From Klebsiella phage 150049: DNA of 64,000 nucleotides. Shown piece by piece: positions 19,405-60,760 of this stretch; within the stretch, counting starts at the first letter, position 1, and every line of letters starts with the position of its first letter. Below the pieces are notes generated by a model. The model was not told the origin of the DNA, made no database searches, and was given only the letters and a program-made list of their open reading frames with translations. The translations under genes and the position numbers were made by a program. The stretch is from the sequence record OP045498.1. One strand, written 5' to 3'.

Positions 19405-19673
19405 TATTTCTTACCTTTCAGTTGCTTAACTTCACGCTCAAAAGATGCTGCACGACGTTCGGCAGTTGCTTGATGCTCTTTCGCAAAACGTGCTTCCTGT
19501 TTTGCGAGGTTGAATGCCATAGCATTCTTGTTCAGAGAATCGTACATCTTTTTCATTGCCGGAATAGACATCTTCATGAGCTGACCTTCAAAACCCTGCA
19601 TATCGAGGAGAATTGCCAGAACGTTAGCCATTTCAGTTTTAGTCATGTTTTCCATTAGAATTTCCTCTCTCAT
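19404..19673 (-). CDS. hypothetical protein
   Basis: Preceded by early promoter cassette. Confidence 0.5.
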   Translation of the reverse strand: MREEILMENMTKTEMANVLAILLDMQGFEGQLMKMSIPAMKKMYDSLNKNAMAFNLAKQEARFAKEHQATAERRAASFEREVKQLKGKK

Positions 19674-19730
19674 TAATTTATGAACTTATTATACAGAATT
19701 TTAAAGCTAAAAGCAACTGAATTTTTTATT
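19661..19730 (-). promoter_or_regulatory. early promoter cassette
   Basis: Minus-strand -35 TTGCTT-like and -10 TATAAT with 17-bp spacer, then ATAAATTAATGAGAGAGG leader and RBS. Confidence 0.6.
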
Positions 19731-19733
19731 TAC

Positions 19734-20165
19734 TTACCAATCGTTAACGAAACCTGAGAACTCAGAAGCAAATACTAACTCAAATTTCTCAGCAATTTCA
19801 GGATGATCCTTACAGATCAGTTCAATGCACTTCTCAGGTTCCATACCATCTTCTTCAGGATCACCGTAATACTTGTCCCAAAGATCATCAGGAATAACTT
19901 GCTCAGCTAGATCTTGGAAGTTCACTAACTGATAGCGTGGAGTATCCTCATTAATAAAGATCTCATGCAATTCCTCAGATACTTCTCCTTTATAATCGGA
20001 AATTAGCAGAGCATTGCAAGCAAAACATTCCCACATCATCAAACGCTCAGAAATCGGGTTCGATTTGTCTTGAACATAGGACTGAAAGACTGCCTTAAAA
20101 GTAGCTTTAACTTGCTCAAACTTATCTGCTGTTGCGATTAAAAGTGCTTTATCAATCTTTTGCAT
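19734..20165 (-). CDS. hypothetical acidic protein
   Basis: ORF with cassette upstream. Confidence 0.5.
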   Translation of the reverse strand: MQKIDKALLIATADKFEQVKATFKAVFQSYVQDKSNPISERLMMWECFACNALLISDYKGEVSEELHEIFINEDTPRYQLVNFQDLAEQVIPDDLWDKYYGDPEEDGMEPEKCIELICKDHPEIAEKFELVFASEFSGFVNDW

Positions 20166-20235
20166 TTTGATTCCTTCTCATCAATTTATAAAGTAATTAT
20201 ACAGAAAACTAAGCATTTTAGCAACTGAATTTTTA
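20166..20235 (-). promoter_or_regulatory. early promoter cassette
   Basis: Same conserved cassette. Confidence 0.55.
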
Positions 20236-20326
20236 TAATAAAAGGCCTAAGCCTAGGCCTATAAAGAAAGAGATAAGAACTACTATCCCTATTGCTATAA
20301 ATATCTCACGAGCCATGCCATCAAAA

Positions 20327-20917
20327 TCAAACATTGATATCTCCCCTCAATACCGCTACCACATCTTCATCGATTTGGAGTACTTCACCAGTAGTGCAGT
20401 TAACCACTTTATCATAGCTTGTGAACTTGCCAGACACAATATCCTCTAAAGGAATAGGAGTCTTGCTCATCTCAAAAGAGACGTTGATATAACGTGGGTC
20501 ACGCACAGAATTGGTGTGCACATGTCCGTGAATGTTCAGCTTACCACGAAGTTCCTCTGGGTGTAAAGGACAGTGAGACAGCCAGAACTTCTTGCCACCA
20601 CCTGTTTGCTTACCTAGAGCCTGAATATCGTCATAAACGTCTACAAGATCTTTAATACGTAGACCCTGACGCTCTGCATCGTGGTTTCCCATAATTAGCT
20701 GGTTAGGCACGTTGTGGATAACCGACTTCAACTTGGCCAACCCTTCTCGCCCCACGGCACTATCTCCTAGCAGCACAAGTTTTGTACGCTTGCCAATGTG
20801 CTTGGACAAAGTATCTAGGATATACTCATCGTGCTCTTTCATGTTCTTAAACCAGGGGCGAAAACGAAGAATCCCTGGGTGGTCTAAGTGGAGTTCACTC
20901 CAGAATTTAACTTTCAT
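20327..20917 (-). CDS. metallophosphoesterase (calcineurin-like)
   Basis: GDSAVG, GNHD and GHVH motifs. Confidence 0.6.
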   Translation of the reverse strand: MKVKFWSELHLDHPGILRFRPWFKNMKEHDEYILDTLSKHIGKRTKLVLLGDSAVGREGLAKLKSVIHNVPNQLIMGNHDAERQGLRIKDLVDVYDDIQALGKQTGGGKKFWLSHCPLHPEELRGKLNIHGHVHTNSVRDPRYINVSFEMSKTPIPLEDIVSGKFTSYDKVVNCTTGEVLQIDEDVVAVLRGDINV

Positions 20918-22354: not shown

Positions 22355-22734
22355 TATCGAGTCATCCAATTAGTGTGTTTTTCAGCTTCTGTATCATTTG
22401 GCTCAAAGACAACGTGACAGTCTACTACTTCCCAGAAAGATTGACGGATGATAGCATTTTGTTCTGCAATATCCAATCCTTCCCATTCTTCAAGTGTTTC
22501 TAGATCTGTATCAACTTCGGTATCACAGCCCACCAGCCCCAAAGTAACAACAATAGTAACACGGCCTTCACGTTCTTCGGGATAAACTTCAGCATATTCC
22601 CAAGCAGCCTGTTCAACATAGTATTCTTGCTCCGATTTAGACAAAGAGTTATACTTTTCTTCTGTGATTCCCATCTCTACAGCACGAGTACCACAGACCA
22701 CGTTGTTATGTATTATAAGATATGCGTAATTCAA
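22354..22734 (-). CDS. hypothetical acidic protein
   Basis: ORF; cassette upstream. Confidence 0.5.
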   Translation of the reverse strand: MNYAYLIIHNNVVCGTRAVEMGITEEKYNSLSKSEQEYYVEQAAWEYAEVYPEEREGRVTIVVTLGLVGCDTEVDTDLETLEEWEGLDIAEQNAIIRQSFWEVVDCHVVFEPNDTEAEKHTNWMTR

Positions 22735-22800
22735 TGTGATACTCCCCTCATCAATTTATACATATATTATATCAAAATTTTTAGCAGAAAGCAAGTAATA
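22735..22800 (-). promoter_or_regulatory. early promoter cassette
   Basis: Conserved cassette. Confidence 0.55.
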
Positions 22801-22836
22801 AAAAACCCAGATCAGCTAAGATCTGGGTTAGATTTA

Positions 22837-23127: not shown

Positions 23128-23530
23128 GTTTATTAATGGCCTCCAAAAATGCCTTCATCACTTTAACAGTTGCAGTGCTAAGATCTAAGGTAGCACCTAA
23201 GCACTCAGATACAGCAGCCTGATAAGGGGCTTTTAGCCTGCCTTCCGGTACTTGTACTTTCTTATAGGTTTTCTTCTTGACTTTATCCAGCATCGTTTCA
23301 AGAACATTGAGAGGCAACTTCTGACCTTCAATATTCACGCCAAGCTCTTCCATTAGCATGGTATTTAAGTCAATACGAGTAAGTTTCTTGCCCTTGCTAG
23401 ACATACGAATTCCCGCCTTTTTCTCAAGTTTTGCACGCTCTGGTGAATCGAGGTCACGTAATGCGATGTTCAATTCATACGGAGCCATATTGTAATGGTT
23501 AGCCATCTGAGTATAGTAACGATCTGACAT
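23120..23530 (-). CDS. hypothetical protein
   Basis: ORF. Confidence 0.5.
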   Translation of the reverse strand: MSDRYYTQMANHYNMAPYELNIALRDLDSPERAKLEKKAGIRMSSKGKKLTRIDLNTMLMEELGVNIEGQKLPLNVLETMLDKVKKKTYKKVQVPEGRLKAPYQAAVSECLGATLDLSTATVKVMKAFLEAINKHE

Positions 23531-23600
23531 TTGTGAAACTCCTCTGATTCAATTTATACAAATATTATATAAAAATTTCAGCGGAAAGTCAACTACTTTT
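23531..23600 (-). promoter_or_regulatory. early promoter cassette
   Basis: Conserved cassette. Confidence 0.55.
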
Positions 23601-23605
23601 TTATA

Positions 23606-24022
23606 TTAATGTGCTTGATGTGGGAATCTCTTCCTAACTAAGTACATAGTTATTGGATATATTGAATACATAAGTATAGGGGAGAAAAGGGTGAAATAAG
23701 CCGTGACTCCCCCAGCTAACATCAGTGGTATCAATGCTAGAGTAAGGGCCATAAGAATCATACCGAATGAGACAGCCAGGGCTACTGTGATGCAGTTCTC
23801 TAACTCCATCCAAAGCCAACAATATTTCGTATTCCTCTGGCAGTTGCATTTGCAAACGCCGAATGTGCCCATAATTATATACTCTAGCCCATGAACGACT
23901 TTCTTTAATGTATCATTTTGGGTAACTAGTGCGACAACAGTGAGAATTATCATTAATATGAAAACTACTAGGCTTATTTTCCATATTCCTAGTAATATCA
24001 TGGTGAATAGTTCTGCAAACAT
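23606..24022 (-). CDS. multi-TM membrane protein
   Basis: 4 predicted TM helices. Confidence 0.45.
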   Translation of the reverse strand: MFAELFTMILLGIWKISLVVFILMIILTVVALVTQNDTLKKVVHGLEYIIMGTFGVCKCNCQRNTKYCWLWMELENCITVALAVSFGMILMALTLALIPLMLAGGVTAYFTLFSPILMYSIYPITMYLVRKRFPHQAH

Positions 24023-24097: not shown

Positions 24098-24511
24098 TCA
24101 GACTAATTCTACGTGACCACCGTCGTAAGTACCACGATCGATCTCATCATGATAATCACCAGAACTATTCCAGTCGGCACCAAAACGAAGTTTGACACCA
24201 AGTTCCTTACCAGCTTGTTCAAAAGCCTTCTTAACAGCCCAAAATGCTTCCAGATCTTTCCAATCAATCTTACCATTAATATATGGTGCAAAATCGATAG
24301 CGTCTCCCGTTACATGTTTACTCTTGCTAGGGTCTTTCAAAAATGAAGTACCATTAGCAATGTTTTGGGCACTTTGTGCTACTGTACGAATACCTTGTAC
24401 GATTGTGAAATCATACGGAGATAGTTCTAAAGCCCTACGAGCTACCTTTTGTAGCTCGGGCTTAACAGTTGCTAATTGTTTTTCGCTATTTTTACCAAAT
24501 TTAAAACTCAT
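24098..24511 (-). CDS. endolysin, peptidase M15 family (L-alanyl-D-glutamate peptidase type)
   Basis: 137 aa; SKHVTGDAID ... DYHDE ... GGHVEL metal-binding pattern; immediately downstream of the holin. Confidence 0.6.
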   Translation of the reverse strand: MSFKFGKNSEKQLATVKPELQKVARRALELSPYDFTIVQGIRTVAQSAQNIANGTSFLKDPSKSKHVTGDAIDFAPYINGKIDWKDLEAFWAVKKAFEQAGKELGVKLRFGADWNSSGDYHDEIDRGTYDGGHVELV

Positions 24512-25164
24512 ATAGATCTACCTAATGATCTTTGCTGCGGTGAGCAAAGCTTTGTTAAGTACTCATTAAATTGTTCCGAGTCAGCTGTATCTACGGGTTT
24601 ATCCTTCCAGGCAATACCTATGTATCCAGCATAGATATTATTTAGATTGAAATACGGACAAGTGTAGACGTAATTAAAAGTAACGTTCTTAAACGCGGGT
24701 ATATTTGACCCCATATATTTATTTACTTTTACACTTAAATCCGAAGCGTAGTTAAAGCCTTCCAGGTGACGTCTATAAAGTTCAGACGTCTTGTTTACTG
24801 CTTTATCGGCCAAGTCAGCCCTATCCAATTGCGCATTGCTTTCCCATGCAATAATGTTCGAATAATCGTTTATAGCATCGGGTTTATACTTGACTACAAA
24901 AACAGCATCCGCACCCGTCTGAGAGAAAAGGACCATGCTCTTTTCTCGTGCTACATTAGGAAAGTTATCTATCCTTTGGGTTTGAACATCCTGTAAAACC
25001 GCAGACGTGGAGAAAGTCTTTAAAAATGACATCACCTCGCTAGTGTTACTTACAAACAAGAAAATAATGACAGCAACTAAGATAGTTAGCAGACGTTTTA
25101 GTAGCGAAGCTGGATCTTTCGCTTCTTGGAGCAGTACCGTTAATAGTTGTAGAAACTTTTCCAC
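24508..25164 (-). CDS. t: holin (T4 t-type)
   Basis: 218 aa; single N-terminal TM; C-terminal YTCPYFNLNNIYAG ... LGRSI matches the T4 holin T periplasmic domain. Confidence 0.8.
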   Translation of the reverse strand: MEKFLQLLTVLLQEAKDPASLLKRLLTILVAVIIFLFVSNTSEVMSFLKTFSTSAVLQDVQTQRIDNFPNVAREKSMVLFSQTGADAVFVVKYKPDAINDYSNIIAWESNAQLDRADLADKAVNKTSELYRRHLEGFNYASDLSVKVNKYMGSNIPAFKNVTFNYVYTCPYFNLNNIYAGYIGIAWKDKPVDTADSEQFNEYLTKLCSPQQRSLGRSI

Positions 25165-25215
25165 TTGTAACCTCCTCTAACCATTACCATTATACTAATT
25201 CTAGAGGAAAATTAC
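25165..25215 (-). promoter_or_regulatory. sigma70-like promoter for t
   Basis: Minus strand TTGTAA-17-TATAAT. Confidence 0.45.
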
Positions 25216-25280
25216 AACGTGTTTTTAAAGATCACTTCTGGAGCATAATTTTTTGTCGTTGTCAAGAAGAATTTTAGGCA

Positions 25281-26685: not shown

Positions 26686-27038
26686 TAATCTTTCCTATTT
26701 GTAATGGGTGGATAGTAAACTAAGCAACGTTTTTCTTGTAAATCTTGACGATAGAAGCAAACCATACCGGTCAGTCGTGAAATGTAAGAGTAAACTGCTT
26801 CCTCGCATTTTGCTTTTGCATTCCAATCTTTGTAAGGTACAACAACTACTACGCCATCTTCACCATTTGTAGCTAATTTCTTTTCGAATTTGAAATCAAA
26901 GCTACACGGCTGAAGTCCTTTAGGCCAGTCAACATGAGCTTGCTTTAACTCATGAGATGGCTCTGGTTTTATTTCTTCTGCACAGCCTGTGATTGTGATT
27001 GCGGCTGCGAGCAGTACTCCAAGTTTCCAGTTAAACAT
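26685..27038 (-). CDS. o-spanin-like lipoprotein
   Basis: Lipobox ITGC; overlaps the i-spanin-like ORF. Confidence 0.45.
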   Translation of the reverse strand: MFNWKLGVLLAAAITITGCAEEIKPEPSHELKQAHVDWPKGLQPCSFDFKFEKKLATNGEDGVVVVVPYKDWNAKAKCEEAVYSYISRLTGMVCFYRQDLQEKRCLVYYPPITNRKD

Positions 27039-27418: not shown

Positions 27419-28073
27419 GTGCTGCTAACCTGTCTTTATCTGATACGGTAATCATATCAGGCTCACCAGTTCCTAGTACACCGAAGATATACTGTTCGAG
27501 AACTTGGTGTAAACGGTATAAGTTACTTTCAATTTCCTGCCACGGAATACCTGACTGGTGGAAACGAATGTTTGTCTGAATTACGAAGTTACGAACATCA
27601 TCGTTATCGTTCTTCTTAATACCTTTCACATACGCAATTGGTACGCGCAGTTCAGATAAGATACGTTCTGCTTTAGGTTTTGCTTCAACCAACATATCTC
27701 GCATGGTTTCACGAACATCACCACGATTCTTATCTAGTAAGTAAGAACGGGCATGTAATCCCATTTCTTCCATTTTATCAAATACAGCATCGATGTTGAA
27801 CGTTTTGAAACTGAATGCCGGATGCCAGCAGGACAGCTCATGTAACCAGTAAACTTCACCTGCAATAAATAGCGGATTTACTGAGTATTCGAAATCACCA
27901 CGGAAGGATAAGGAACCCTCACGAAACACCTGACGATTATGAACAATATTCTTTTCTACATCGTCAGTTACTTTTACCAGCAGCTCTTCAGTTTTACGCT
28001 CCCAGACACGATCTGGATCAAATAAACTATTCTGCAAATCGTATACATCATTGAACTTTGAAATGATTCTCAT
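27375..28073 (-). CDS. hypothetical protein
   Basis: ORF. Confidence 0.5.
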   Translation of the reverse strand: MRIISKFNDVYDLQNSLFDPDRVWERKTEELLVKVTDDVEKNIVHNRQVFREGSLSFRGDFEYSVNPLFIAGEVYWLHELSCWHPAFSFKTFNIDAVFDKMEEMGLHARSYLLDKNRGDVRETMRDMLVEAKPKAERILSELRVPIAYVKGIKKNDNDDVRNFVIQTNIRFHQSGIPWQEIESNLYRLHQVLEQYIFGVLGTGEPDMITVSDKDRLAAHGFDTKTSFRNMAR

Positions 28074-28150
28074 AAATTATCCTTTTGCCTCAATCTATAA
28101 ACATATTATACAATACTTGTGGCATCTGAGCAACTGAAATTTTATTACAA
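28074..28150 (-). promoter_or_regulatory. early promoter cassette
   Basis: Conserved cassette. Confidence 0.5.
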
Positions 28151-28218
28151 AAATAGCCCAGTCGCAAAATTGCAGGCTGGGCTTTGTCATTATTATTCTT
28201 GCTAGGAGGTGATTATCA

Positions 28219-29922: not shown

Positions 29923-30196
29923 CAGGATCTTCCTCATTACAGTCACGGCATACATCATAATCGTTGTAAGAATGTTCGTGCGCTTCACACCACCAGCCAC
30001 ATTCGTCACACAGAAAGATTTCGGTCTTTTCAATGGCTTGGCCTAGTAATTCGTCGGCTTCGTCATGTGTAATCTTCAGGCTACAAACATCAGCTACTTG
30101 TTGAACAATCAGACTCCCTACTTTGTGGTAGGACATGCAGGTTCCCTGTGCATCATGCTCAAGGACGTGGATAGCACAGTCTAAGCGATTTTTCAT
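29915..30196 (-). CDS. Cys-rich small protein
   Basis: CDECGWWC and CRDC pairs; cassette upstream. Confidence 0.45.
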   Translation of the reverse strand: MKNRLDCAIHVLEHDAQGTCMSYHKVGSLIVQQVADVCSLKITHDEADELLGQAIEKTEIFLCDECGWWCEAHEHSYNDYDVCRDCNEEDPDE

Positions 30197-30262
30197 TTCA
30201 AAGCCCTCTCATCAATTTATATAAATATTATATCAAAAGGAGAGGGTTTTAGCAAATGAATT
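30197..30262 (-). promoter_or_regulatory. early promoter cassette
   Basis: Minus strand TTGCTA-17-TATAAT then ATTTATATAAATTGATGAGAGGG ATG. Confidence 0.6.
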
Positions 30263-30272
30263 ATTTACGAAA

Positions 30273-30626
30273 TTAGTCGTAGCACCACCATAACCCGCGC
30301 TTACGCAGGTCATGATCGCGATTATAGTCGTAATTTTCTGGATCTTTCATCACATGGTGAAGTTCGTAACGGTTTCCCTGACGAACCATTTTGTTAGAAT
30401 GCCACTTAACATTCCTACTAACAGAATCCCAATTGTACCCATCCTTTTTCTCATATTTAATGATATCGTCTTGTAATTCCTTTTCAATTTCTTCTCTAGT
30501 GTACGGGACTGCCGGTTCTTTCAAGGCGAAGAAACGACGATTGTACCCAAGAGTAAAGTTGAATTTAGAACGATGTGCATCACGCCAGTGACGATCACCA
30601 GATTGTTTACGATATGTACGGCTCAT
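30273..30626 (-). CDS. hypothetical basic protein
   Basis: ORF. Confidence 0.5.
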   Translation of the reverse strand: MSRTYRKQSGDRHWRDAHRSKFNFTLGYNRRFFALKEPAVPYTREEIEKELQDDIIKYEKKDGYNWDSVSRNVKWHSNKMVRQGNRYELHHVMKDPENYDYNRDHDLRKRGLWWCYD

Positions 30627-31867: not shown

Positions 31868-31943
31868 TGGTAGTTAGTAGTGGATTTGAACCACTGTAGT
31901 CGCTCCGTATGAAGGAGGTGCATAACCGCTCTGCCAACTAACT
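31868..31943 (-). tRNA. tRNA-Met/Ile2 (CAT)
   Basis: CCA-encoded; T-arm AGTGG TTCAAAT CCACT; anticodon loop TTCATAC. Confidence 0.6.
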
Positions 31944-31949
31944 ATAATT

Positions 31950-32025
31950 TGGTACTCCGACTTGGGATCGAACCAAGATTTGACGATTATCGGTCGCCTG
32001 TTCTAACCTGTTGAACTATCAGAGC
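31950..32025 (-). tRNA. tRNA-Ile (GAT)
   Basis: T-arm CTTGG TTCGATC CCAAG; anticodon loop CCGATAA. Confidence 0.7.
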
Positions 32026-32026
32026 A

Positions 32027-32320
32027 TTACATCATTTCATCTAAGTAAGAAGTATACTGGTATTTAGCTTCACCAGTCTTATCTACTTCTACCTCAGTTC
32101 GTGGTACTTTACGAACTAGACCGTGAATCATCTTATAGTTAATAGACTTAGATGGTTCGTGATCTTTTGGAAAGACTTGTTTAACCGTTACTACTTTGAA
32201 GCCTTCACGAGGTGTTAATACAACAACTTGATCACCTTCTTTAATTTTCCAGGACTCAGGAAATTCGTAAGTGTAGCGTTGACCACCAGTTTGGAACACG
32301 ACAGAAAGATAACGTTTCAT
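32027..32320 (-). CDS. hypothetical protein
   Basis: ORF with cassette upstream. Confidence 0.5.
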   Translation of the reverse strand: MKRYLSVVFQTGGQRYTYEFPESWKIKEGDQVVVLTPREGFKVVTVKQVFPKDHEPSKSINYKMIHGLVRKVPRTEVEVDKTGEAKYQYTSYLDEMM

Positions 32321-32385
32321 TTGGTTTCCCTCTCATTAATTTATATAAATATTATAACAAGAAATAAGAGAGAAGGCAAATGAAT
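32321..32385 (-). promoter_or_regulatory. early promoter cassette
   Basis: Conserved cassette. Confidence 0.55.
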
Positions 32386-32395
32386 TTTTTAAATT

Positions 32396-32470
32396 TGGTG
32401 CTCCCACCAGGAATCGAACCCGGTTCAGATGCTTACAAGGCAACTGCATCGCCAGCAATGCTTTAGGAGC
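32396..32470 (-). tRNA. tRNA-Thr (TGT)
   Basis: T-arm CGGGT TCGATTC; anticodon loop CTTGTAA. Confidence 0.65.
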
Positions 32471-32858: not shown

Positions 32859-32874
32859 AACGTTTCCTTATATT

Positions 32875-33421: not shown

Positions 33422-33427
33422 AATATT

Positions 33428-47640: not shown

Positions 47641-47700
47641 GCTGTTCTCTAATTTATGAATCTATTATACAGAATTTTGGAACGTTTAGCAAATCAATTT
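47641..47700 (-). promoter_or_regulatory. early promoter cassette (no downstream ORF)
   Basis: Minus strand TTGCTA-17-TATAAT then AGATTCATAAATTAGAGAACAGC. Confidence 0.5.
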
Positions 47701-48144
47701 TTAATTAAATTCGCCAGCAACCTGAGCAGCAATGCCACCATCGTAACGACCAGGAAACTCTTCCTTAATCGCTTTCATCAGCATACCCTTTGTAATCCCA
47801 GGATTCAACTTAACTAATTCTGCAAAGTATTTGCGAATCTCAGAATCAGATAACTGAGGCGGCAGATACTGTTGTAGCCATTTGTTCAGTATATATTCAT
47901 ACTGAGCAGACTGCAAGCTATAATTATCAAGGTCTTGACCGTGAAGTTTAGCTTTTGTCTGATTAATGCTTTTCAGTTGAGCTTTTAGATAAGATACAAA
48001 CTGTTCAGAAGTAATGAAGTCTTTATCAACACGCTGAAGATCTCCGATTATAGTCTGGTAGCTTTTAGCTACTTCTTTATCAGAACCATCAACCTTAGAT
48101 TCCTGCAAAGCCCTACGCAAAACATCTAGAATATTCTCTTCCAT
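47701..48144 (-). CDS. GatB/YqeY-domain protein
   Basis: C-terminal ELVKLNPGITKGMLMKAIKEEFPGRYDGGIAAQVAGEF resembles the YqeY family. Confidence 0.5.
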   Translation of the reverse strand: MEENILDVLRRALQESKVDGSDKEVAKSYQTIIGDLQRVDKDFITSEQFVSYLKAQLKSINQTKAKLHGQDLDNYSLQSAQYEYILNKWLQQYLPPQLSDSEIRKYFAELVKLNPGITKGMLMKAIKEEFPGRYDGGIAAQVAGEFN

Positions 48145-48314
48145 TATTTAATTCCCAGTGCTTGGTTAAAAGATTGTTCTGTCATAACTGCCGAGACTTT
48201 AGCGAAATCAAACTTCTTAGGGTTTGTAGTAATTTCAGCAACGTTAGTAGTTTTAACTGTTTTCGTAGTACGGATACCACGAGTATTAACACCAATAATT
48301 ACAACTGATTTCAT
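48144..48314 (-). CDS. 56 aa small protein
   Basis: Cassette RBS GAGAGG before ATG 48314; TAATG overlap with the next gene. Confidence 0.3.
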   Translation of the reverse strand: MKSVVIIGVNTRGIRTTKTVKTTNVAEITTNPKKFDFAKVSAVMTEQSFNQALGIK

Positions 48315-48382
48315 ATTTCGCTTCCTCTCATTAATTTATGAAAGTATTATACAGAAATTTAAGGCTTTAAGCAATCGAATTT
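48314..48382 (-). promoter_or_regulatory. early promoter cassette
   Basis: Conserved cassette. Confidence 0.5.
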
Positions 48383-48832
48383 TTAAGTTTTCTTAACCAC
48401 AGGCTTGTAGAACGTATGGCCTTGAATCTTCGTTGTTTTCTTAAACTTCTTTGTCCAGTACGGTTTATCTTTACCACTATGGAAGTATAACGCTCCATGT
48501 GTTGGATCTTGTGGTAAATCAACGTAGTATATCACTCTAGCTAAATTCTTAGCAACTTGCCAAGCCTCATCGGTTTTATCAACTTTTGGTCTCTTGGCCA
48601 CCCAAGAGAACTGGTTAGACTGATATACTACTTTACAGTAAGAATCAGGAAAAGTACCAGAGTTAACACGGTTTTTAGTAACCTGTGCAACTGCGATCAT
48701 TCCTTTAGTGCCCTCACCTCGTGCTTCGAAGTAGATATTTTTTGCAATGCAATCAATCTGCTTTGAGTCGTAGGTCGCATGACTATTGAAGCTATAGGTT
48801 AGGGCAGCTATTAAAAGCAAAGCTGCCTTCAT
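48383..48832 (-). CDS. secreted SleB-like cell-wall hydrolase (Hydrolase_2 family)
   Basis: Signal peptide; NIYFEARGE signature; start ATG 48832 with GGAG RBS. Confidence 0.6.
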   Translation of the reverse strand: MKAALLLIAALTYSFNSHATYDSKQIDCIAKNIYFEARGEGTKGMIAVAQVTKNRVNSGTFPDSYCKVVYQSNQFSWVAKRPKVDKTDEAWQVAKNLARVIYYVDLPQDPTHGALYFHSGKDKPYWTKKFKKTTKIQGHTFYKPVVKKT

Positions 48833-48837: not shown

Positions 48838-49155
48838 TTACTCCGGCCAATCGTACTCAATACGATTAGGGCTTTCTTGATACCCTTCGTCTAAGAGATC
48901 ATTACGCATGGTCTCTTTAGCTACTGGGTTCGAGGTTACTAGTACCACTTTCTTGGGTCTCTGACCAAATTCTAGGAGTAAACGAAGAATTTGATAACCT
49001 TCCATACCATCTACAGCCAGATCGTTATCCATATAAACGAAATGACCTGTGGTATCGGTTTTATTCAGAAACTCAACAGCGGCTTCTGGGGTTCGAATGA
49101 TAATATCCATCCCATGCAGGTCACGAACATCATCAATCAGAATATGAAAAATCAT
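48838..49155 (-). CDS. hypothetical protein
   Basis: ORF with cassette upstream. Confidence 0.45.
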   Translation of the reverse strand: MIFHILIDDVRDLHGMDIIIRTPEAAVEFLNKTDTTGHFVYMDNDLAVDGMEGYQILRLLLEFGQRPKKVVLVTSNPVAKETMRNDLLDEGYQESPNRIEYDWPE

Positions 49156-49230
49156 AATAGCCTCGTCTCATCAATTTAAAAATATATTATATAGAAAACT
49201 AAACTAATTAGCAAATACATTTTTAAATTG
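49156..49230 (-). promoter_or_regulatory. early promoter cassette
   Basis: Conserved cassette. Confidence 0.5.
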
Positions 49231-49594
49231 AGAGACTAGTAAACCGATAAACAGCCTAGAGGCGCCACAGGCCATATCTTATGAGCCATGTACCTTTGAT
49301 CTAGGGTTTGAATCATCAACGAATACTTTGCATCTTTTAGCTTTAGAAGGTTAGAAGTTTGAGTGCTTTTAACTTTTCAGCTTTCATACTTGAGCGTTGA
49401 TCTTTGAAGTTGTGTTGGTACTACCAACGACCGTTTTTACAGTTCAGCTTAAGAGGCTGGTGTAATAAACATAATCTCCAATAGATTATACTTTATAGTA
49501 TGGTCAGCGGTCTTATTTAACCTCGTATTTCAACCGCTGCTGCGAGGTAAGATGCTTGGGCTTTCGTCTACCGATTTACTAGTCTTTTAAATTA

Positions 49595-50233
49595 TTACTC
49601 TACTTCGATAAAAGTAGAGGCGTTGGACTCAGACAGAACAAAGTCAACGTTGGTTGCAAAGTCCTGGTATTCTTCGTCGTGTTGCTTGATCAGCTTTTCC
49701 AGCTCCAGCGGATCGATCAGGAACGGAGTGTTCTTGAGTTCCAGCAGGTTAAGCTGCATCTTAACTTCATCCTCGGAAGTCTTCTTGTCGCGGGTAGCCA
49801 TGGTATCCTGCAAACGCTCATACTTGGCATCAAACTGAGCCTTCTGAGTGTTAAACTTAACAGTAGCAGCATGGAACTGCTTACGCATGTTAGCCAGCAA
49901 CTGAGCTTTGAGTTCCATAGAACGCTTAGCTTCGATTGCTTCCGCAACAGTCATAGAGCGGGAACCGATCTCTACAACAGTTTCAGCATTGCTCTTGATC
50001 AGCGCTGCTTTCAGCTGATCACGCTGGGACATCATATCCAGCAGAGACTGGAAATCAGTCTTAATACGAGTAGACAGAGCATCTACTTCGATTGCAGCGC
50101 CAACGACAACTTGGTTCTTGTCCTTACCTTCACCAACAGCGATCAAAAGCTGTTGTTCAGTAGCTTTACGGATTTTAGCTTCCAGAGACTTGATAGTTGC
50201 CAGAGCACGAGTTTTAGAGATACGAGTAGTCAT
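49595..50233 (-). CDS. hypothetical coiled-coil protein
   Basis: Start at ATG 50233 (AAGGAAG RBS); the upstream extension in the ORF track lacks an RBS. Confidence 0.5.
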   Translation of the reverse strand: MTTRISKTRALATIKSLEAKIRKATEQQLLIAVGEGKDKNQVVVGAAIEVDALSTRIKTDFQSLLDMMSQRDQLKAALIKSNAETVVEIGSRSMTVAEAIEAKRSMELKAQLLANMRKQFHAATVKFNTQKAQFDAKYERLQDTMATRDKKTSEDEVKMQLNLLELKNTPFLIDPLELEKLIKQHDEEYQDFATNVDFVLSESNASTFIEVE

Positions 50234-50288: not shown

Positions 50289-50471
50289 TTACAGACCGAT
50301 TGCCAGCAGAGTGCGCAGAACAGTATCAGAACTGTTATCAATATTCGGATTGGCGCGATTCAGTACGTTAAAGATTTTCTGGATGCCGGACTGACGTTCA
50401 GCCATACGACGCAGACCCAGGTTACGTTTTGCTACTTTACCATTTTTACGGACGTTTTTAGATACTGGCAT
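50289..50471 (-). CDS. small basic protein
   Basis: AAAGGAAA RBS; cassette upstream. Confidence 0.4.
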   Translation of the reverse strand: MPVSKNVRKNGKVAKRNLGLRRMAERQSGIQKIFNVLNRANPNIDNSSDTVLRTLLAIGL

Positions 50472-50541
50472 AATTGTTTTCCTTTTGTTGTTCTCTCAAA
50501 TTTATGAATATATTATACAGAATTTTGGAGCTGAAAGCAAA
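50472..50541 (-). promoter_or_regulatory. early promoter cassette
   Basis: Minus strand TTGCTT-17-TATAAT then ATATTCATAAATTTGAGAGAACA. Confidence 0.55.
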
Positions 50542-51243
50542 TCAAATTTTGATTTTTTCGATCATGACGGCTACACAATAACTTTCAACTAAAGCATCGA
50601 ATGCTGGATCATGCTTCACAGGATAGATTCCATAACGAATGGTGTCCATCTTTTCCATTTTAGCTTTTGCCCAACTAGCACCTTCGGCTTCTAGATCTTT
50701 ATAGCTATAACCAGCTTGCATCCACTGATTACGGAAAGATCGAACGTTACCTAAGTTCCAGAATTTCCACGGAACTATTTCTTCATGGGTTCCGGCATGG
50801 AACGTATTTGCAGAGTAGATTGTCATATCAAACTCTGGGCCATTGCCGTAATACAGAGCATTATCTCCTAGAGACAATTCCATAATGTTCTGAGCCATAG
50901 AGAAGGCAGCATAATTAGAGCCTACGTCATTAGTGCAGTGATGCTTACCATCACGGAAGGCAATCAGTTTAGGATTACGACCATTTAGAGCCTCCATAAT
51001 ATGGAGCGCAGATGGACTGTTTTTAGCTTGATCCATCCAGAATGCAATAGTAGAGGCAGTTACCTTAGCACCCGCATTAAGCTGATCTTGAACGTCTAGA
51101 GTAACGAATACCAGATCAGGATCTTTATCAATTCCGTGCATCGCTACAAAAGCGAAAGAAGGCATTGCAATATGAGTAGTACCGCAATTTCCTGGAGTAC
51201 CTAGAGATTCAATGTCCAGCATACCAAAGGGCTTGAATTTCAT
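50542..51243 (-). CDS. dexA: DEDD-type exonuclease, T4 DexA-like
   Basis: N-terminal LDIESLGT (Exo I motif D-x-E); size and layout like T4 exonuclease A. Confidence 0.55.
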   Translation of the reverse strand: MKFKPFGMLDIESLGTPGNCGTTHIAMPSFAFVAMHGIDKDPDLVFVTLDVQDQLNAGAKVTASTIAFWMDQAKNSPSALHIMEALNGRNPKLIAFRDGKHHCTNDVGSNYAAFSMAQNIMELSLGDNALYYGNGPEFDMTIYSANTFHAGTHEEIVPWKFWNLGNVRSFRNQWMQAGYSYKDLEAEGASWAKAKMEKMDTIRYGIYPVKHDPAFDALVESYCVAVMIEKIKI

Positions 51244-51804: not shown

Positions 51805-52323
51805 TTACTTCGCTTTACGCTTGCGAGTAGGTTTAGCGGATTTACGATCAGAAGCACCAGTAAACTTAATACCGATACCGTAGCACAGAGCGCGAACGTT
51901 GTCACGGCTATACTCTACACCGAAAATATTCGGTTTAACGGAGCCAAACTGTCCACGGGATTCGCGCATTACATCAGCCATTGGCTTACGCTTCTGATTG
52001 ACTGCTTTTTCGTAGTCTTTCAGAGCCATACCGTTGCGGGCGAACATCTCAGCACCGCCGTTAAAGCTCAGAGTTACCGGTACAGACTTATGACCTTCAC
52101 CCTTGATGAACACAACCTGCTTAGTAGCAGTTGCGCGAGTAGAGTTCTTGGCCTTCGGCTTCTGGCGAACCGGAGCCGCAGACTTCAGGGCAGTCTGAGC
52201 CTGAGCATCAGTAGGATGCTTACGCAGATGACGTTCCAGACGAGCCTTACGATTGGCTTCGGTCTGAGCGAAAGTTTTAACTGCCGGAGCTGCCTGAGTT
52301 TTTGCGTTTTTCTGCTTAGCCAT
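51805..52323 (-). CDS. basic Lys/Ala/Arg-rich protein, possible nucleic-acid binding
   Basis: pI clearly basic; cassette upstream. Confidence 0.5.
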   Translation of the reverse strand: MAKQKNAKTQAAPAVKTFAQTEANRKARLERHLRKHPTDAQAQTALKSAAPVRQKPKAKNSTRATATKQVVFIKGEGHKSVPVTLSFNGGAEMFARNGMALKDYEKAVNQKRKPMADVMRESRGQFGSVKPNIFGVEYSRDNVRALCYGIGIKFTGASDRKSAKPTRKRKAK

Positions 52324-52406
52324 TATTTGTTTTCCTTTTTGTTGATCAATTTATGAGATATATTATACGAAATTTTGAAGCGTTTAGCAAATGAATTTTT
52401 TAAAAA
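52324..52406 (-). promoter_or_regulatory. early promoter cassette
   Basis: Conserved cassette. Confidence 0.5.
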
Positions 52407-52685
52407 TTATCTGCCGATCATCTTAGCTTGTTCCTCACTGGAAACGTACTGATAACCACCCTTGTTATATGCAGGAGCAGTACACAGTTTCTTGCGCTCA
52501 ATTTCTTCTTGAGCTTTGCGTTCCCTTTCGGCTAATTCTTCATCTAGATAAACTAGACGTTGCTCCGGAGGTGGTGGAAGCCTAGTTTCTGGCTCACCAA
52601 TATTTGCCTTTCTGATCTGACGCGGGGATTGTGCGCGTTTTCTCAAAGGTTTAAATCCTAATGAATTTGAGTTGTAAATTCGCAT
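52407..52685 (-). CDS. hypothetical protein
   Basis: RBS GAGGGC can pair with upstream AAAGCCCTC (9-bp inverted repeat spanning the promoter). Confidence 0.45.
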   Translation of the reverse strand: MRIYNSNSLGFKPLRKRAQSPRQIRKANIGEPETRLPPPPEQRLVYLDEELAERERKAQEEIERKKLCTAPAYNKGGYQYVSSEEQAKMIGR

Positions 52686-52761
52686 AAAGCCCTCCTCACT
52701 TTCAATACGAATATTATACTAAATTCGAGGGCTTTAAGCAAGTGAATTTTTAATTTATTTA
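52686..52761 (-). promoter_or_regulatory. early promoter cassette flanked by 9-bp inverted repeat
   Basis: AAAGCCCTC ... GAGGGCTTT. Confidence 0.5.
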
Positions 52762-53238
52762 TTACATCTCAGCAAGTTCTTGCTCAGTAATTACAGTATT
52801 GCATAGAGCATCAACTTCTTCATTACCACGAATACCTGAGTGACCTTTGACCTTAACAAAGGTTGGGTTAGTATCATGGAAATTAATATACTGTTGAGTT
52901 AGTTTAAATGCTTCTTGCCAGAGTTCTAGATTAAGAGGAGTTTCACCATCTCCCTTCTTCCAGCCTTTCTTCTGCCAAGACCACATCCAGCTTTCCATAC
53001 CATTTTTGCAGTAAGCAGAATCAGTGTAGATAATTACTGGACGATTATCTTTCTTAGTAGACCAACGAAGAACTTCTACAATTGCAGTAAGTTCCATTTC
53101 GTTATTAGTAGTTTTAGGGCTGAAGCCAGATTTAGAGCCAATACGATCATCATTATCATTATAGACAACGAATCCCCACGCACCTAAACCAGGATTGCCT
53201 TTACATGCACCATCTGTATATATGTGGAAAACCGACAT
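52762..53238 (-). CDS. rnhA: ribonuclease HI
   Basis: IYTDGACKGNPGLGAWG ... TDSAYC ... GHSGIRGNEEVDAL: canonical RNase H1 DEDD motifs. Confidence 0.8.
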   Translation of the reverse strand: MSVFHIYTDGACKGNPGLGAWGFVVYNDNDDRIGSKSGFSPKTTNNEMELTAIVEVLRWSTKKDNRPVIIYTDSAYCKNGMESWMWSWQKKGWKKGDGETPLNLELWQEAFKLTQQYINFHDTNPTFVKVKGHSGIRGNEEVDALCNTVITEQELAEM

Positions 53239-53509: not shown

Positions 53510-54088
53510 TTATTCTCCAGTTACTAAAACATCATGTTGAGAAGATACACCACACATATAATCTGCACAATGCGTAAAAGCCAGATCAATGATTTCAAAT
53601 ATATCATCTACATCTAAATCTGTGGCTCGACAATCCGCAATAGCTAAACCTGTACGAATACTGGAAAGTACATCTTCTCCTCCACAGCCTACACCGGCAT
53701 ATTCAACTTCTAGAATAGAAGCATTAGATTGGAAAATAAAGATTCTTCCTTTGTAGAGCATAATAAATTGTCCCAGATTAGGTTCAGCATATTTTTCATT
53801 TTTCTTTTCGCCAAAATCTTTCTGGTTAAACATATCACGTAATTTAGGTACTATTTCCGTATATAAATATTTATCATCGGAAATATCTGCTAAACGTGGT
53901 GGTACAGTAAAGCTATGCTCTAGTAATTGTCCCATGTAGAAGGAACTAGTGTATCCGAAGTACAAATCATCAGAGATTTTGAATACTTTCGGATTTTTAA
54001 CCAGCAGTTTCGTATAGCCATTAGAACCCATACGATCACCAGCTAAGTATACTTTATCTTTATATTTAAATGCTACTATGGCTGTCAT
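53510..54088 (-). CDS. Ntn-hydrolase, HslV/proteasome beta-subunit-like peptidase
   Basis: Met-Thr N-terminus (MTAIVAFKYKDKVYLAGDRMGS), conserved Lys region, later AGVGCGGE resembling the HslV GSGG loop. Confidence 0.5.
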   Translation of the reverse strand: MTAIVAFKYKDKVYLAGDRMGSNGYTKLLVKNPKVFKISDDLYFGYTSSFYMGQLLEHSFTVPPRLADISDDKYLYTEIVPKLRDMFNQKDFGEKKNEKYAEPNLGQFIMLYKGRIFIFQSNASILEVEYAGVGCGGEDVLSSIRTGLAIADCRATDLDVDDIFEIIDLAFTHCADYMCGVSSQHDVLVTGE

Positions 54089-54186
54089 TATTAAATCCTT
54101 CTGTCAAATTAGAAGTATATTATATTTGAATTTCACTCAGTAAGCAAATGAAATTTAAATATAATAGCCCCGAAGGGCTATTTGAA
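54089..54186 (-). promoter_or_regulatory. early promoter cassette with hairpin
   Basis: Cassette plus TAGCCCC GAA GGGGCTA hairpin. Confidence 0.5.
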
Positions 54187-55398: not shown

Positions 55399-55925
55399 TT
55401 AAATATCACCAATTCTTGTAAGAATGAAAGTGTTTTATCTGCATTCTGTCCTGCCACATAGTCCATTCTAGTTGCCATTGAATTAGTTAAAGTAATGTGA
55501 TGATGAAGATGTACATCAGCAGATAATGGTGTGGCTGAAGTAATAGTAGAGATATACGCCATATCTAGATGATTTTTGACATACATTTCAAGAAGCAGAG
55601 TTGCTCCCCCTAATACTACAGTTACCTCTTCCTTGAGAAAATCAGGCAGACGGTATCCAATGTTGCTTATGCGTGTAGCTGATCCTACAGAGTTAGGTAG
55701 TGGTCTATTTGCATAAATAAATAGGTCAGAATCTCCTAGTATTCTTTTTTGCAGAGTCTCAGGGAAGGCTAACCAAGTTCCTGCTCCTACAATAATATTA
55801 TCAGGTGCTAGAGAATCCAAAGTAGCATAGAAAGTATTTAGTTCTTCTTTGAAAGAACCCCAAGGGAGTTTACCATTGAGGCCGAACTCCCCATTCGGCC
55901 CAGTTGCATAGATTGCTGCTATCAT
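55395..55925 (-). CDS. frd: dihydrofolate reductase
   Basis: [23 protein letters not shown] ... IVGAGTW resembles T4 Frd and bacterial DHFR; ATGA overlap with td. Confidence 0.7.
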
Positions 55926-57070
55926 TAGAACATACCCTCAAATTCGTTGCCAAGATCTTTCAGAGTATCAGCAGAGGTTTCAGTTACCTGACCTACACGA
56001 TATGCTGCACCAATCTGAATCTCTTGCGGAGCAGGTTGTAAAGATGTAGTATCCAACCAGTTCATAATCCACGGAATAGGGTTCTTAGTAATTACAGGTA
56101 AGTGGCTTGGCCATTCTACACCAATGTGCATAAATGCGTTACGTCCTACAAAGTAAAGGTATTCTTCAAGCAATTCTGCGTTCAAACCAATCAGACTGCG
56201 GCCTTTAAAGATAAAGTGGCCCCATTCAATCTCAGTTTTCAGAGTTTTTAGGAGTTGTGCTGGTGCTTTAGCTAATGCTTCGTCTACCAGATCTTTATCA
56301 AACTGCTGGAACATAATCTGGATGATAGCTTTAGACATTTGAGTATGTAGAGCTTCATCTTTAGCGATTAATTGCAGGTTCTTAGCAATACCTTGCAGAA
56401 TATCGTTCTCTGCTAGAGCAAAGGTACATGCAAAGGATGCGTAGAACTGCATTGCTTCCAGACCGTAGATTGCAAAGTAAGCATCTAACAGCTTAGCCTG
56501 AGTTTCACGTTTAACTTCAGGGAACTCAGTTTCTGGATAAGTATTATCACCACGATGATCACGTACTGCAAGGAAATACTGACCTAACAGATACAATTCA
56601 TCAAACAGTTCAACAGAATCTGCGATACGTGCAAATGCTTCTTGGTTTTTAGTTACAGAATCAATAAATTCTGCTGGATCAGTCAGAACGTTACGAATAA
56701 TATTACTATACGCACGGCTGTGCAGATCTTCGAAGTAGCTCCACTGCTTGAGCATACCCTCCAATTCAGGACGGCTTACAAGCGGCATAATAGCTGCTTC
56801 AGGAGCACGGCTAATGAAAGAATCTGTTTGAGTCTGCCATGCTAAGTTCAGGAGAGTAATTTCCTGAATATCACGCGGAAGGTTTGGCCATTGTTTCTTA
56901 TCGGCTTCCAGACTGATTTCAGTTTCAGTCCAAAATTGAGAACGTTGCAGAAGTGCTAGACGCTCAAGTTCAGGATGTGCTACACGAACGTAATCTGCGA
57001 TACCAAGAGAATCGCCCAGGAAAAGGTCAGCGTTAGTATGATCCCAATTCAGGTTTAGTAAAGTAGTCAT
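55925..57070 (-). CDS. nrdB: ribonucleotide reductase class Ia beta subunit
   Basis: 381 aa NrdB-type di-iron/tyrosyl radical protein. Confidence 0.9.
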   Translation of the reverse strand: MTTLLNLNWDHTNADLFLGDSLGIADYVRVAHPELERLALLQRSQFWTETEISLEADKKQWPNLPRDIQEITLLNLAWQTQTDSFISRAPEAAIMPLVSRPELEGMLKQWSYFEDLHSRAYSNIIRNVLTDPAEFIDSVTKNQEAFARIADSVELFDELYLLGQYFLAVRDHRGDNTYPETEFPEVKRETQAKLLDAYFAIYGLEAMQFYASFACTFALAENDILQGIAKNLQLIAKDEALHTQMSKAIIQIMFQQFDKDLVDEALAKAPAQLLKTLKTEIEWGHFIFKGRSLIGLNAELLEEYLYFVGRNAFMHIGVEWPSHLPVITKNPIPWIMNWLDTTSLQPAPQEIQIGAAYRVGQVTETSADTLKDLGNEFEGMF

Positions 57071-57176
57071 TGATTTTCCTCTTTCTCACTATTTCAGGAA
57101 TATTATAGCAAATCTGGTAGCGATTAGCAAGTAAAATTTCAAAGAAAAAGGAGACCCGAAGATCTCCTTGTTTTTA
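57071..57176 (-). promoter_or_regulatory. early promoter cassette (nrdB)
   Basis: Cassette-like TATAAT and AAGCAA elements plus hairpin GGAGATCTTCGGGTCTCC. Confidence 0.4.
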
Positions 57177-59507: not shown

Positions 59508-59628
59508 TTGGCTTTCCTTTTTGTAGTTATCAGGATTTAGGAAATAGTTTACTTTATTATCAGTCATTTGGCAAATAAAATTTTCTGATAGAAAAGGCCC
59601 GAGTATTTTCATACCCAGGCCTTCTATA

Positions 59629-59871
59629 TTACCAGTCTAGTTTTTCGGCTTGATTAATTACTTTTGCTTTCGCATTCGCCCTCAGAAGAATATCTACTGA
59701 TGTTGAAAGTTCATTATAATTAAAAGGCCGATTTGGATTAGAGGCTACAATTTTCCACGCTAGGGTAGTCTTAGGACTTTCTTCCCCTTCCTTACGTGTA
59801 ATCATATTAGCAGCACTCAATGAAGTACGGTGGATCTTAGTTTTGCGGTGCAGATGTACGACGTTTCCCAT
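59629..59871 (-). CDS. hypothetical small protein
   Basis: ORF. Confidence 0.4.
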   Translation of the reverse strand: MGNVVHLHRKTKIHRTSLSAANMITRKEGEESPKTTLAWKIVASNPNRPFNYNELSTSVDILLRANAKAKVINQAEKLDW

Positions 59872-59872
59872 A

Positions 59873-60625
59873 TTACACCTTCCCCATATCCTTAAAGATA
59901 TCGTAGAATGCTTTAGACTCTGGTGAGCGAACGTTGTCGATCAGTTCGATCATAGAGAAAGGAGAGTTTTCGTACTTCTCATAGACTTCCATAAGAAGTG
60001 CTAGACCTGAATCACCCTTGATGTCTTTCTGAGCTATATCTCCACAGATAATTAAACGACAATCTTGTCCTACACGAGTCAAAAGACAGATCATTGCTTC
60101 AACGGAGATATTCTGAGCTTCATCGACAATTACATAGGAGTTGTTGAAAGTTCGGCCACGGGCATGTTCGATAGCCAGGAATTTAATTTTCTGACGTTCG
60201 ACATATCCTTTGTAGGCGTGATCACCGATTGCCCATTTCATGCCATCGGCTATTGGTTCCAACCAAGGCTCTAGCTTTTCTGCCAGATCACCTGGGAGCA
60301 TACCAAGAGATTTACCTAGAGGTTCGTTCGGACGCACGAGGATCACTTGCTCAATATCTGAGTGAATGTCTACGAGTTCCTGAGCTGCAAGAACGGACGG
60401 AATAAAGGTTTTACCAGTACCTGGTTCACCAATACCCACAGTCACTGTGTTGTTCTTGATCATATTGATATATGATTTTTGCTCACGGTTTTTACCAACT
60501 AGGGATTTAGCAACTGGATTGGCGTAATCACCAGAGAAATCTGCTTGAATTACGTTACTCTCATACTTGTTGCCACGCTTTCTTGAACCATTGCGGTTCT
60601 CTCTTTTTTGACGTGCTTTTCCCAT
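59873..60625 (-). CDS. phoH: PhoH-like ATPase
   Basis: Walker A GEPGTGKT, Walker B VIVDEAQN; start ATG 60625 with TAGGAG RBS. Confidence 0.8.
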   Translation of the reverse strand: MGKARQKRENRNGSRKRGNKYESNVIQADFSGDYANPVAKSLVGKNREQKSYINMIKNNTVTVGIGEPGTGKTFIPSVLAAQELVDIHSDIEQVILVRPNEPLGKSLGMLPGDLAEKLEPWLEPIADGMKWAIGDHAYKGYVERQKIKFLAIEHARGRTFNNSYVIVDEAQNISVEAMICLLTRVGQDCRLIICGDIAQKDIKGDSGLALLMEVYEKYENSPFSMIELIDNVRSPESKAFYDIFKDMGKV

Positions 60626-60634
60626 AAATAACAC

Positions 60635-60760
60635 TCCTATAGTGTACTTCGCTAACAGAGGATCAACAAAAAGATCTTGTTTATCAACTTACAAATATAT
60701 TATACCAATATATACGGGAGAAAGCAACTACAATTTTAAATAAGCCTATGATATTGCATT
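60635..60760 (-). promoter_or_regulatory. early promoter cassette (phoH)
   Basis: Minus strand TTGCTT-17-TATAAT. Confidence 0.5.

Follow-up and report, generated by a model that had tools for sequence, protein, structure and literature searches.

The early promoters of bacteriophage T5, for which the 1985 work of Gentz and Bujard is said to be the source, form a class that is annotated in the T5 reference genome and has been the subject of about 40 years of biochemistry. Here, we describe a repeat family that very probably represents the same class in a stretch of 64,000 nucleotides from Klebsiella phage 150049 (sequence record OP045498.1), hereafter the window, in which a conserved cassette, consisting of a promoter and a short leader, recurs ahead of small genes and transfer RNA (tRNA) clusters.

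According to Klimuk et al. (2020), the pre-early, early, and late genes of T5 all use the host RNA polymerase (RNAP) with sigma-70; an ATATT discriminator is common to all known T5 early promoters, and transcripts from P11, P15A, and other promoters are detected by primer extension (PMC7472727). For N25, Hsu and Han (2025) reported an extremely stable open complex, with initiation limited at promoter escape; the replacement of positions +3 to +20 reduced the yield of full-length RNA by a factor of about 10, and the natural initial transcribed sequence seems to be optimised for escape (PMC12464699). In T4-type phages, the promoter-early stem-loop (PeSL) has been described, which is defined by an AT-rich tract, a sigma-70-like promoter, a Shine-Dalgarno sequence (SD) with ATG, and a stem-loop (Arbiol et al., 2010, PMC2839356).

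The recurring promoter-plus-leader unit reported by the first-pass annotation of the window was confirmed. The 27-mer given there, searched exactly or with three mismatches, matched one site only, the copies being too divergent for it; in its place, we used a gapped pattern together with a position weight matrix (PWM). Over the whole window, the pattern TTGCT-N15-19-TATAAT (TTGCT-N18-TATAAT) gave 24 matches versus 0.45 expected, and repeat finding placed the same sites in families of 18–20 copies of 45–65 nt each. The iterated PWM, which covers positions -40 to +32 relative to the -10 element and had been proposed as a check, extracted 25 copies at 44–71 bits, the maximum in 20 shuffles being 15.4. 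One further copy, at 39894, was found by the regular-expression scan; its score is low (33.7) because its spacer is one base longer (18 nt). The family thus totals 26 members, 24 on the minus strand within 19646–60749 and two on the plus strand (2037–2129 and 62872–62964). The former of these had been listed near 2058–2116 and the latter had been missed, the family itself being real.

The consensus reads AAAAATTcAtTTGCTt-N17-(TG)TATAAT-ATATTt-ATAAATTGAtGAGAGG-few bases-ATG. The architecture proposed earlier was recovered in full: the A-rich upstream tract, the -35 element TTGCTt, the 17-bp spacer, and TATAAT are found throughout, the sole exception being the 18-nt spacer at 39894. Both the PWM consensus and the anatomy of each copy hold an ATATT-type discriminator and a conserved transcribed ATAAATT (TATAAT-ATATTt-ATAAATTG). 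In 20 copies an SD lies at +10 to +22 and a start codon at +22 to +35 (ATG, with one TTG at 22734). The remaining six (35595, 36998, 39523, 41131, 47669, and 60704), and not three as had been counted, lack both SD and ATG. ATAAATT is directly seen to be kept in all six of them, which implies that this box is part of the promoter and not a translation signal. The conserved "leader" is, in other words, made up of the AT-rich discriminator and the initial transcribed sequence.

As regards the identity of the phage, the region is 97–98% identical to Escherichia phage PECP14 and to the Salmonella phages Sepoy, Sw2, and Stitch (Demerecviridae, Epseptimavirus), and the window is collinear with T5 at 72–90% identity across the region. 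The T4-type frame of reference in which the cassettes had been placed therefore does not apply to this T5-like phage. The T5 record (AY543070) carries 75-bp "promoter" features throughout the early region, at sites syntenic with the window cassettes, and names P-F30, P11, P13a/b, P14a/b, P15a/b/c, P16-17, P-D/E33, P-H207, P-N25, P-N26, and P-K28a among them. Once extracted, these sequences proved to be the same cassette as the window copies, with P15a 97% identical to the copy at 43336. Also T5 P-N25, which we take to be the "T5 promoter" of the pQE-type vectors, reads AAGAATCATAAAAAATTTATTTGCTTTCAGGAAAATTTTTCTGTATAATAGATTCATAAATTTGAGAGAGGAGTT (...AAAAAATTTATTTGCTTTCAGGAAAATTTTTCTGTATAATAGATTCATAAATTTGAGAGAGGAG) and has the same architecture.

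The orthology with the annotated T5 promoters is observed copy by copy. For 20 out of 25 window copies the best T5 match is the syntenic copy, the identity over 78 nt being 0.69–0.97; among the other window copies, the best paralogue attains 0.59–0.76, and the mean identity between paralogues is 0.56. Orthologues being closer than paralogues, the copies appear to be old and specific to their positions, rather than homogenised or recently spread. In T5-group loci, 21 kb hold 12–14 cassettes, and all of these are on the transcribed strand; no cassette was found in the distant relatives L030, L032, and L036–L038 (76% or 25% protein identity of the anchor gene), so that the family is traced as far as the T5 group.

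On these grounds, the cassettes are, with little doubt, early sigma-70 promoters of a T5-like phage (Markadamsvirinae), and would be read by the unmodified host polymerase. The structure is, therefore, already known: what stands out as a striking repeat family in the raw sequence is the textbook T5 early promoter set, and the value of the present analysis is mainly corrective. The first-pass interpretation holds as far as early promoters followed by a short leader, SD, and ATG that head small minus-strand genes and tRNA clusters are concerned, and fails in its T4-type framing. Window and T5 share the architecture of the whole unit, UP A-tract through SD, as well as the gene-by-gene positions, the use of SD-less copies to drive tRNA clusters and stable RNAs, and, for this phage by orthology, the host sigma-70 polymerase. 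They differ in that the window phage belongs to another genus, Epseptimavirus, and has an extra copy (41495) together with a nadR-pnuC-orf98 block that T5 lacks; moreover, some T5 copies are parted from their gene by HNH endonuclease genes that the window phage does not have. The promoter set is, thus, kept copy for copy between genera, and 26 orthologous, naturally occurring variants of an escape-limited promoter can be catalogued from the comparison.

In the mechanism that we propose, each unit would consist, in this order, of an A-tract UP-like element (about -50 to -40), the -35 element TTGCTt, a 17-bp spacer that is AT-rich and in many copies closes with TG (extended -10), a perfect TATAAT, the AT-rich ATATT discriminator, an A start, and the A/T- and purine-rich initial transcribed sequence ATAAATTGAtGAGAGG. 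The host sigma-70 polymerase would read the cassettes once the second-step DNA enters the cell, and might bind so tightly that promoter escape becomes the rate-limiting step; the initial transcribed sequence would consequently be selected for faster escape. In 20 copies the same sequence would double as the source of the SD, with the start codon at +22 to +35, and in the other six it would pass directly into tRNAs or a non-coding RNA. The spread of copies before genes and tRNAs would make the genome a series of many short early transcription units, some of them insulated by an upstream terminator.

Some observations weigh against this reading or limit its reach. A scan of the window for the generic sigma-70 consensus gave 51 matches versus 47–55 in shuffles, i.e., no enrichment, so that the case rests on the extended family signature and on orthology and not on hexamer matches. 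The use of sigma-70, the start site, and the role in escape are, for each window copy, presumed from the T5 literature. T5 P11, the orthologue of copy 32356, showed "pre-early-like" kinetics (PMC7472727), and the class assignment of single copies may, therefore, not be uniform. Lastly, an 18-nt perfect inverted repeat at 41489–41538 is not explained by promoter function.

The sequence around the start site had been interpreted in another way, namely that the complementary strand of most copies reads TATAAATA, a T4-type late promoter, with antisense late transcription across the early genes and a bidirectional early/late unit at 2034–2116. This we regard as having almost no chance of being correct. 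The octamer does lie opposite six cassettes (2082, 30232, 32356, 35595, 41495, and 43336), and its total in the window is 13 versus 6.8 expected; yet these are six out of the 25 strong copies and not most of them, and the seven occurrences outside cassettes, set against the same 6.8, are at chance level. TATAAATA is the complement of TATTTATA in copies whose discriminator is ATATTTATAAATT or ATTTATATAAATT, and is hence a by-product of the early-promoter sequence. T4 late promoters depend on gp55, gp33, and the clamp, whereas T5 uses sigma-70 for all classes (PMC7472727). Among the annotated T5 genes there is no sigma factor, an observation from the annotation, no homology search for gp55 having been run. 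P-G25 and P-J5, which are late promoters of T5, have a -35 and a -10 element (TTGATA/TTGACA-17-TATAAT/TATACT) and lack TATAAATA; along the 28-kb T5 late region the octamer occurs three times on the coding strand, never at an annotated promoter. The idea of a bidirectional unit at 2034–2116 fares better in part. On the strand opposite the llp cassette, the receptor-binding protein gene begins at a distance of about 80 nt; its product is a virion structural protein, so the gene is presumably late and, with so close a start, needs a promoter in or near the cassette, and T5 annotates an overlapping divergent promoter at the oad/llp gap (110349–110449). The T5 minus-strand site reads TTTATAATAC, however, which is a sigma-70 -10 (TATAAT) and not TATAAATA, so that what is conserved is a -10 of the sigma-70 kind rather than the T4 motif. 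Owing to the failure of the claims on TATAAATA and on the copies without a ribosome-binding site (RBS), the first-pass observation is partly confirmed, that is, for a real, non-random family. A further reading concerns the box itself (-6 to +10, ATATT-ATAAATTGA), which might be primarily a class-specific regulatory site at which a factor, gpT5.026 or D5, would shut off early promoters late; this overlaps with the escape-optimised initial transcribed sequence rather than replacing it, and we consider it possible, although unlikely as the primary role. The box is found in all 26 copies, non-coding ones included, and is missing from the promoter of the holin/endolysin genes (25189–25217, TTGTAA-17-TATAAT, discriminator GGTAAT), as it is in T5, from that of a plus-strand module (43476–43504), and from the T5 pre-early P-H22 and late P-G25 and P-J5. 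The lack of the box at a lysis-gene promoter inside the early region hints that the lysis genes are timed differently. Klimuk et al. proposed that gpT5.026, which weakens the contacts of RNAP at -5/+2, owes its differential effect to ATATT, and the T5 annotation describes D5 as a DNA-binding protein involved in early shut-off; on the other hand, gpT5.026 has no strong effect in vitro (PMC7472727), and the conservation of the box is already accounted for by the role of the N25 initial transcribed sequence in optimising escape (PMC12464699). A broader version, in which the box would be the cis element for switching off the early class under sigma-70, via gpT5.026 or D5, and the promoters would in addition act as occasional HNH landing pads and gene-block linkers, is rather improbable in our opinion; the shut-off role of the box is already hinted at in the literature. 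Being specific to its class, the box could help to test the timing of early shut-off in T5-like phages, which is unsettled according to Klimuk et al. (2020, PMC7472727).

The cassettes had also been considered PeSL-like mobile elements, i.e., portable patches of homology through which recombination shuffles, inserts, and deletes the flanked genes, as in T4-type phages. The likeness in architecture is real (PMC2839356): in common with the PeSLs of the T4-type phages RB49 and phi1 (PMC2839356; Comeau et al., 2014, PMC4122927), the cassettes combine a strong sigma-70-like early promoter with an AT-rich tract upstream and SD/ATG at the 3' edge, are repeated in regions of small, variable genes, and in a minority of copies adjoin terminator hairpins. 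Individual events that end at cassettes exist as well. A 2.1-kb nadR-pnuC-cassette-orf98 block (41141–43296) replaces T5.076 between P15a and P15b, and in close relatives homology often ends 7–48 nt downstream of the -10 (57100, 47653, 43297, 39494, 38769, 36978, 35573, and 30191). The comparison of cassette positions with synteny breakpoints was carried out twice. Around the T5.080 homologue (33000–56500), 30 T5-like IMG/VR loci gave 128 distinct homology boundaries, 97 of them at gene or tRNA junctions, and 22 of the 128 fell in cassette intervals, which make up 9% of the sequence; nevertheless, cassette junctions were affected in 11 out of 15 cases and cassette-free junctions in 43 out of 58 (Fisher p = 1.0). 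This test being saturated, with about 74% of all junctions affected, it was repeated over 19400–61000 with four closer relatives, IrmaTschudi, PECP14, Sepoy, and Seafire (96–97% identical over the aligned region). Here, 10 out of 24 cassette junctions and 27 out of 89 other junctions were affected (odds ratio 1.6, p = 0.33), Seafire alone giving 8 out of 24 versus 10 out of 89 (p = 0.02). Breakpoints, therefore, cluster at all gene and tRNA junctions with no preference for cassettes (p = 1.0 and p = 0.33), and several of the cassette-adjacent events are insertions of HNH homing endonucleases, which have their own mobility mechanism. The copies are, furthermore, nearer to their syntenic T5 orthologue (0.69–0.97) than to one another (0.76 at most, 0.56 on average), and between paralogues that are about 56% identical over 78 nt, unbroken stretches of homology on which recombination could act are scarce. 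The defining stem-loop of a PeSL lies upstream of only 6–7 out of 26 copies and within 4–5, about one quarter to one third, and self-complementarity is not significant (p = 0.17). Unlike PeSLs, then, the window cassettes mostly lack a stem-loop, show no excess of breakpoints relative to other junctions, are orthologous and position-bound, and belong to an unrelated phage family. The data do not single them out as recombination substrates, and PeSL-like mobility of the family is improbable and not supported by the comparison; T4-like late promoters are removed from consideration altogether.

Hairpins deserve separate mention, since several copies had been said to be embedded in them; this is so for a minority and is not a property of the family (p = 0.17). 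A terminator-like hairpin lies directly upstream in 6–7 out of 26 copies, and internal inverted repeats occur in 4–5. The perfect inverted repeat reported at 41460–41530 around a -35 element is real and pairs 41489–41506 with 41521–41538 (18 nt), with the -35 of cassette 41495 in the 14-nt loop; it duplicates the spacer and -10 of this cassette inversely, so that the plus strand gains a TGTATAAT directed antisense into pnuC. Six relatives have the repeat unchanged, but they are 93–99% identical over the segment and too close to be informative. The one reported at 52686–52761 is also real and pairs 52682–52694 with 52727–52739 (13 nt, 92%; duplex -23.3 kcal/mol): the spacer of cassette 52718, AAAGCCCTC, and its SD region, GAGGGCTTT, are complementary. 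Similarly, the spacer motif CCCTCTC of cassette 30232 is complementary to the SD (inverted repeat 30200–30210/30240–30250, duplex -18.8 kcal/mol), and cassette 32356 holds an imperfect 33-nt palindrome centred on the -10 (inverted repeat 32316–32384, duplex -22.7 kcal/mol).

In the T4 genes e, soc, and 49, hairpins occlude the RBS in long early transcripts. Pairing of a similar kind is seen in the sequence of 52718, 32356, 30232, and 38807, where the SD/AUG has a complement in the spacer or -35 region, so that only read-through transcripts started upstream could have their RBS masked. Unlike in T4, it is limited to few copies and is not significant family-wide: duplexes between the upstream half of a copy and its own leader average -10.85 kcal/mol, versus -10.38 kcal/mol with the leaders of other copies (permutation p = 0.17). 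Self-complementarity thus not being above cross-copy pairing, RBS sequestration as a function of the whole family was rejected.

The single copies, named after the position of their -10 element, are described below with their PWM scores and T5 identities; unless a copy is said to be on the plus strand, it lies on the minus strand. At the left end of the window, positions 1–4000 hold two divergent genes, for the receptor-binding protein and the receptor-blocking lipoprotein, and the terminal repeat begins within the same interval. The plus-strand cassette 2082 (2037–2129, PWM 66.0) has its SD at +13 and its ATG at +24 (2117); it heads the llp-like receptor-blocking lipoprotein gene and is divergent from the receptor-binding protein gene. 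Cassette 19693 (19646–19738, 67.1) precedes an 83-aa open reading frame (ORF) with ATG at 19655 and is 0.96 identical to T5 16245–16319. Cassette 20201 (20154–20246, 70.3; ATG 20165), with a terminator hairpin upstream at 20243–20260, corresponds to T5 P-F30 (0.87), and cassette 22771 (22724–22816, 51.6), which has the TTG start at 22734 and an upstream terminator at 22804–22829, to T5 18550–18624 (0.78). Cassette 23569 (23522–23614, 52.4), whose -35 is TTGACT, has its ATG at 23530 and matches T5 19368–19442 (0.72). Three further copies match T5 24443–24517, T5 26722–26796, and P11: cassette 28110 (28063–28155, 49.8; ATG 28073; 0.83), cassette 30232 (30185–30277, 61.0; ATG about 30196; 0.86), and cassette 32356 (32309–32401, 66.6; -35 TTGCCT; ATG 32320; 0.90), respectively.

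The window carries 29 tRNA genes on the minus strand (31868–46566), and most of the SD-less copies are associated with them. Cassette 35595 (35548–35640, 56.1), 0.79 identical to T5 P13b, feeds a 350-nt ORF-free segment and then tRNA-Ala, P13b preceding the stable RNA "RNA2H" in T5. From cassette 36998 (36951–37043, 48.2; 0.73 to T5 P13a) tRNA-Pro begins 26 nt past +1, and from cassette 39523 (39476–39568, 54.1; 0.79 to T5 P14a) tRNA-Tyr begins 58 nt past +1. With only 8 nt, the distance is shortest for tRNA-Ser downstream of cassette 41131 (41084–41176, 62.6), which is syntenic with T5 P15b. Interspersed with these are two copies that have a start codon, namely cassette 38807 (38760–38852, 61.0; ATG 38772; 0.85 to T5 P14b) and cassette 39894 with the 18-nt spacer (39847–39939, 33.7; ATG 39858), which is syntenic with T5 P15c. 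The last SD-less copy of this group, cassette 47669 (47622–47714, 62.3; 0.73 to T5 P16-17), feeds a 1.09-kb ORF-free segment followed by tRNA-Arg, and P16-17 precedes the stable RNA "RNAX". The two ORF-free segments adjoining SD-less cassettes (46567–47640 and 35234–35580) correspond to T5 "RNAX" and "RNA2H", listed in the T5 record as stable RNAs with no function assigned there; a search of Rfam matched the 29 tRNAs only and nothing in these segments. Within the former, 47178–47567 is swapped for 127 bp in four close relatives.

Between P15a and P15b, where T5 has T5.076, the window shows a nadR-like/pnuC-like pair for nicotinamide adenine dinucleotide salvage, a terminator, the extra cassette, and a 98-aa ORF (41141–43296). 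The extra cassette 41495 (41448–41540, 63.3), which has no T5 orthologue, precedes the 98-aa ORF with ATG at 41459; its nearest relative is the neighbouring cassette 43336 (0.76), the P15a orthologue. The latter (43289–43381) has the highest score (70.7) and an identity of 0.97 to P15a, and its ATG at 43300 opens the nadR-like gene. Upstream of 41495 lies a terminator-like hairpin (41536–41558), whose loop is GCTTA here and in Sepoy and the reverse complement, TAAGC, in four other relatives (L005, L007, L035, and L039), which indicates an inversion of the loop; Seafire (L041) shows two substitutions at the stem-loop junction (TAACTTA). Next to this block, a plus-strand three-gene module (43410–45226) has its own TTGACA-17-TAAAGT promoter, an orthologue of T5 P12; the module is missing in Seafire and in one IMG/VR relative, which have 70–78 bp instead.

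To the right of the tRNA region, the next four copies show identities above 0.9: cassette 48351 (48304–48396, 68.3; ATG 48314) to T5 P-D/E33 and cassette 49191 (49144–49236, 62.0; ATG 49155) to T5 43067–43141, both at 0.92, cassette 50517 (50470–50562, 63.9), with its ATG at 50471 (+35), to T5 44393–44467 (0.96), and cassette 52367 (52320–52412, 50.6; ATG 52323, +33) to T5 P-H207 (0.94). Cassette 52718 (52671–52763, 46.6; ATG 52685) is syntenic with T5 46337–46411. Cassette 54124 (54077–54169, 48.2; ATG 54088), with a terminator-like hairpin upstream, is about syntenic with T5 46937–47011, the identity not being diagnostic in this case. Cassette 57107 (57060–57152, 44.5), preceded by a terminator at 57148–57169, opens nrdB with ATG at 57070 (0.69 to T5 50061–50135). 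Cassette 60704 (60657–60749, 58.4) has no adjacent SD/ATG and is followed by a leader of about 60 nt and then by a phoH-like gene (0.96 to T5 53638–53712). Beyond the range covered by the first-pass annotation, the plus-strand cassette 62917 (62872–62964, 46.7; ATG 62951), with a terminator upstream, is 0.74 identical to T5 55708–55782.

In relatives, HNH homing-endonuclease genes of about 500–600 bp lie between the cassette and the first gene at two sites, i.e., nrdB (57078–57100; IrmaTschudi, PECP14, Seafire, and T5 hegH) and tRNA-Ser (41027–41103; Seafire). Seafire has a third HNH gene just upstream of the -10 of cassette 19693 (19693–19734), and the window phage lacks all three insertions.

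Two features outside the family complete the picture of the region. Clusters of 31–58-nt direct repeats occupy 12858–13005 and 13158–13810, and the segment that holds them is homologous with the "injection stop signal" which T5 has at its terminal repeat's inner end. Finally, at the switch in the direction of transcription, two back-to-back near-consensus sigma-70 promoters, 60840–60868 on the minus and 60920–60948 on the plus strand (TTGCCA/TTGACA-17-TATAAT), lack the early box, and T5 annotates both, at 53776–53850 and 53884–53958 (nrdD).

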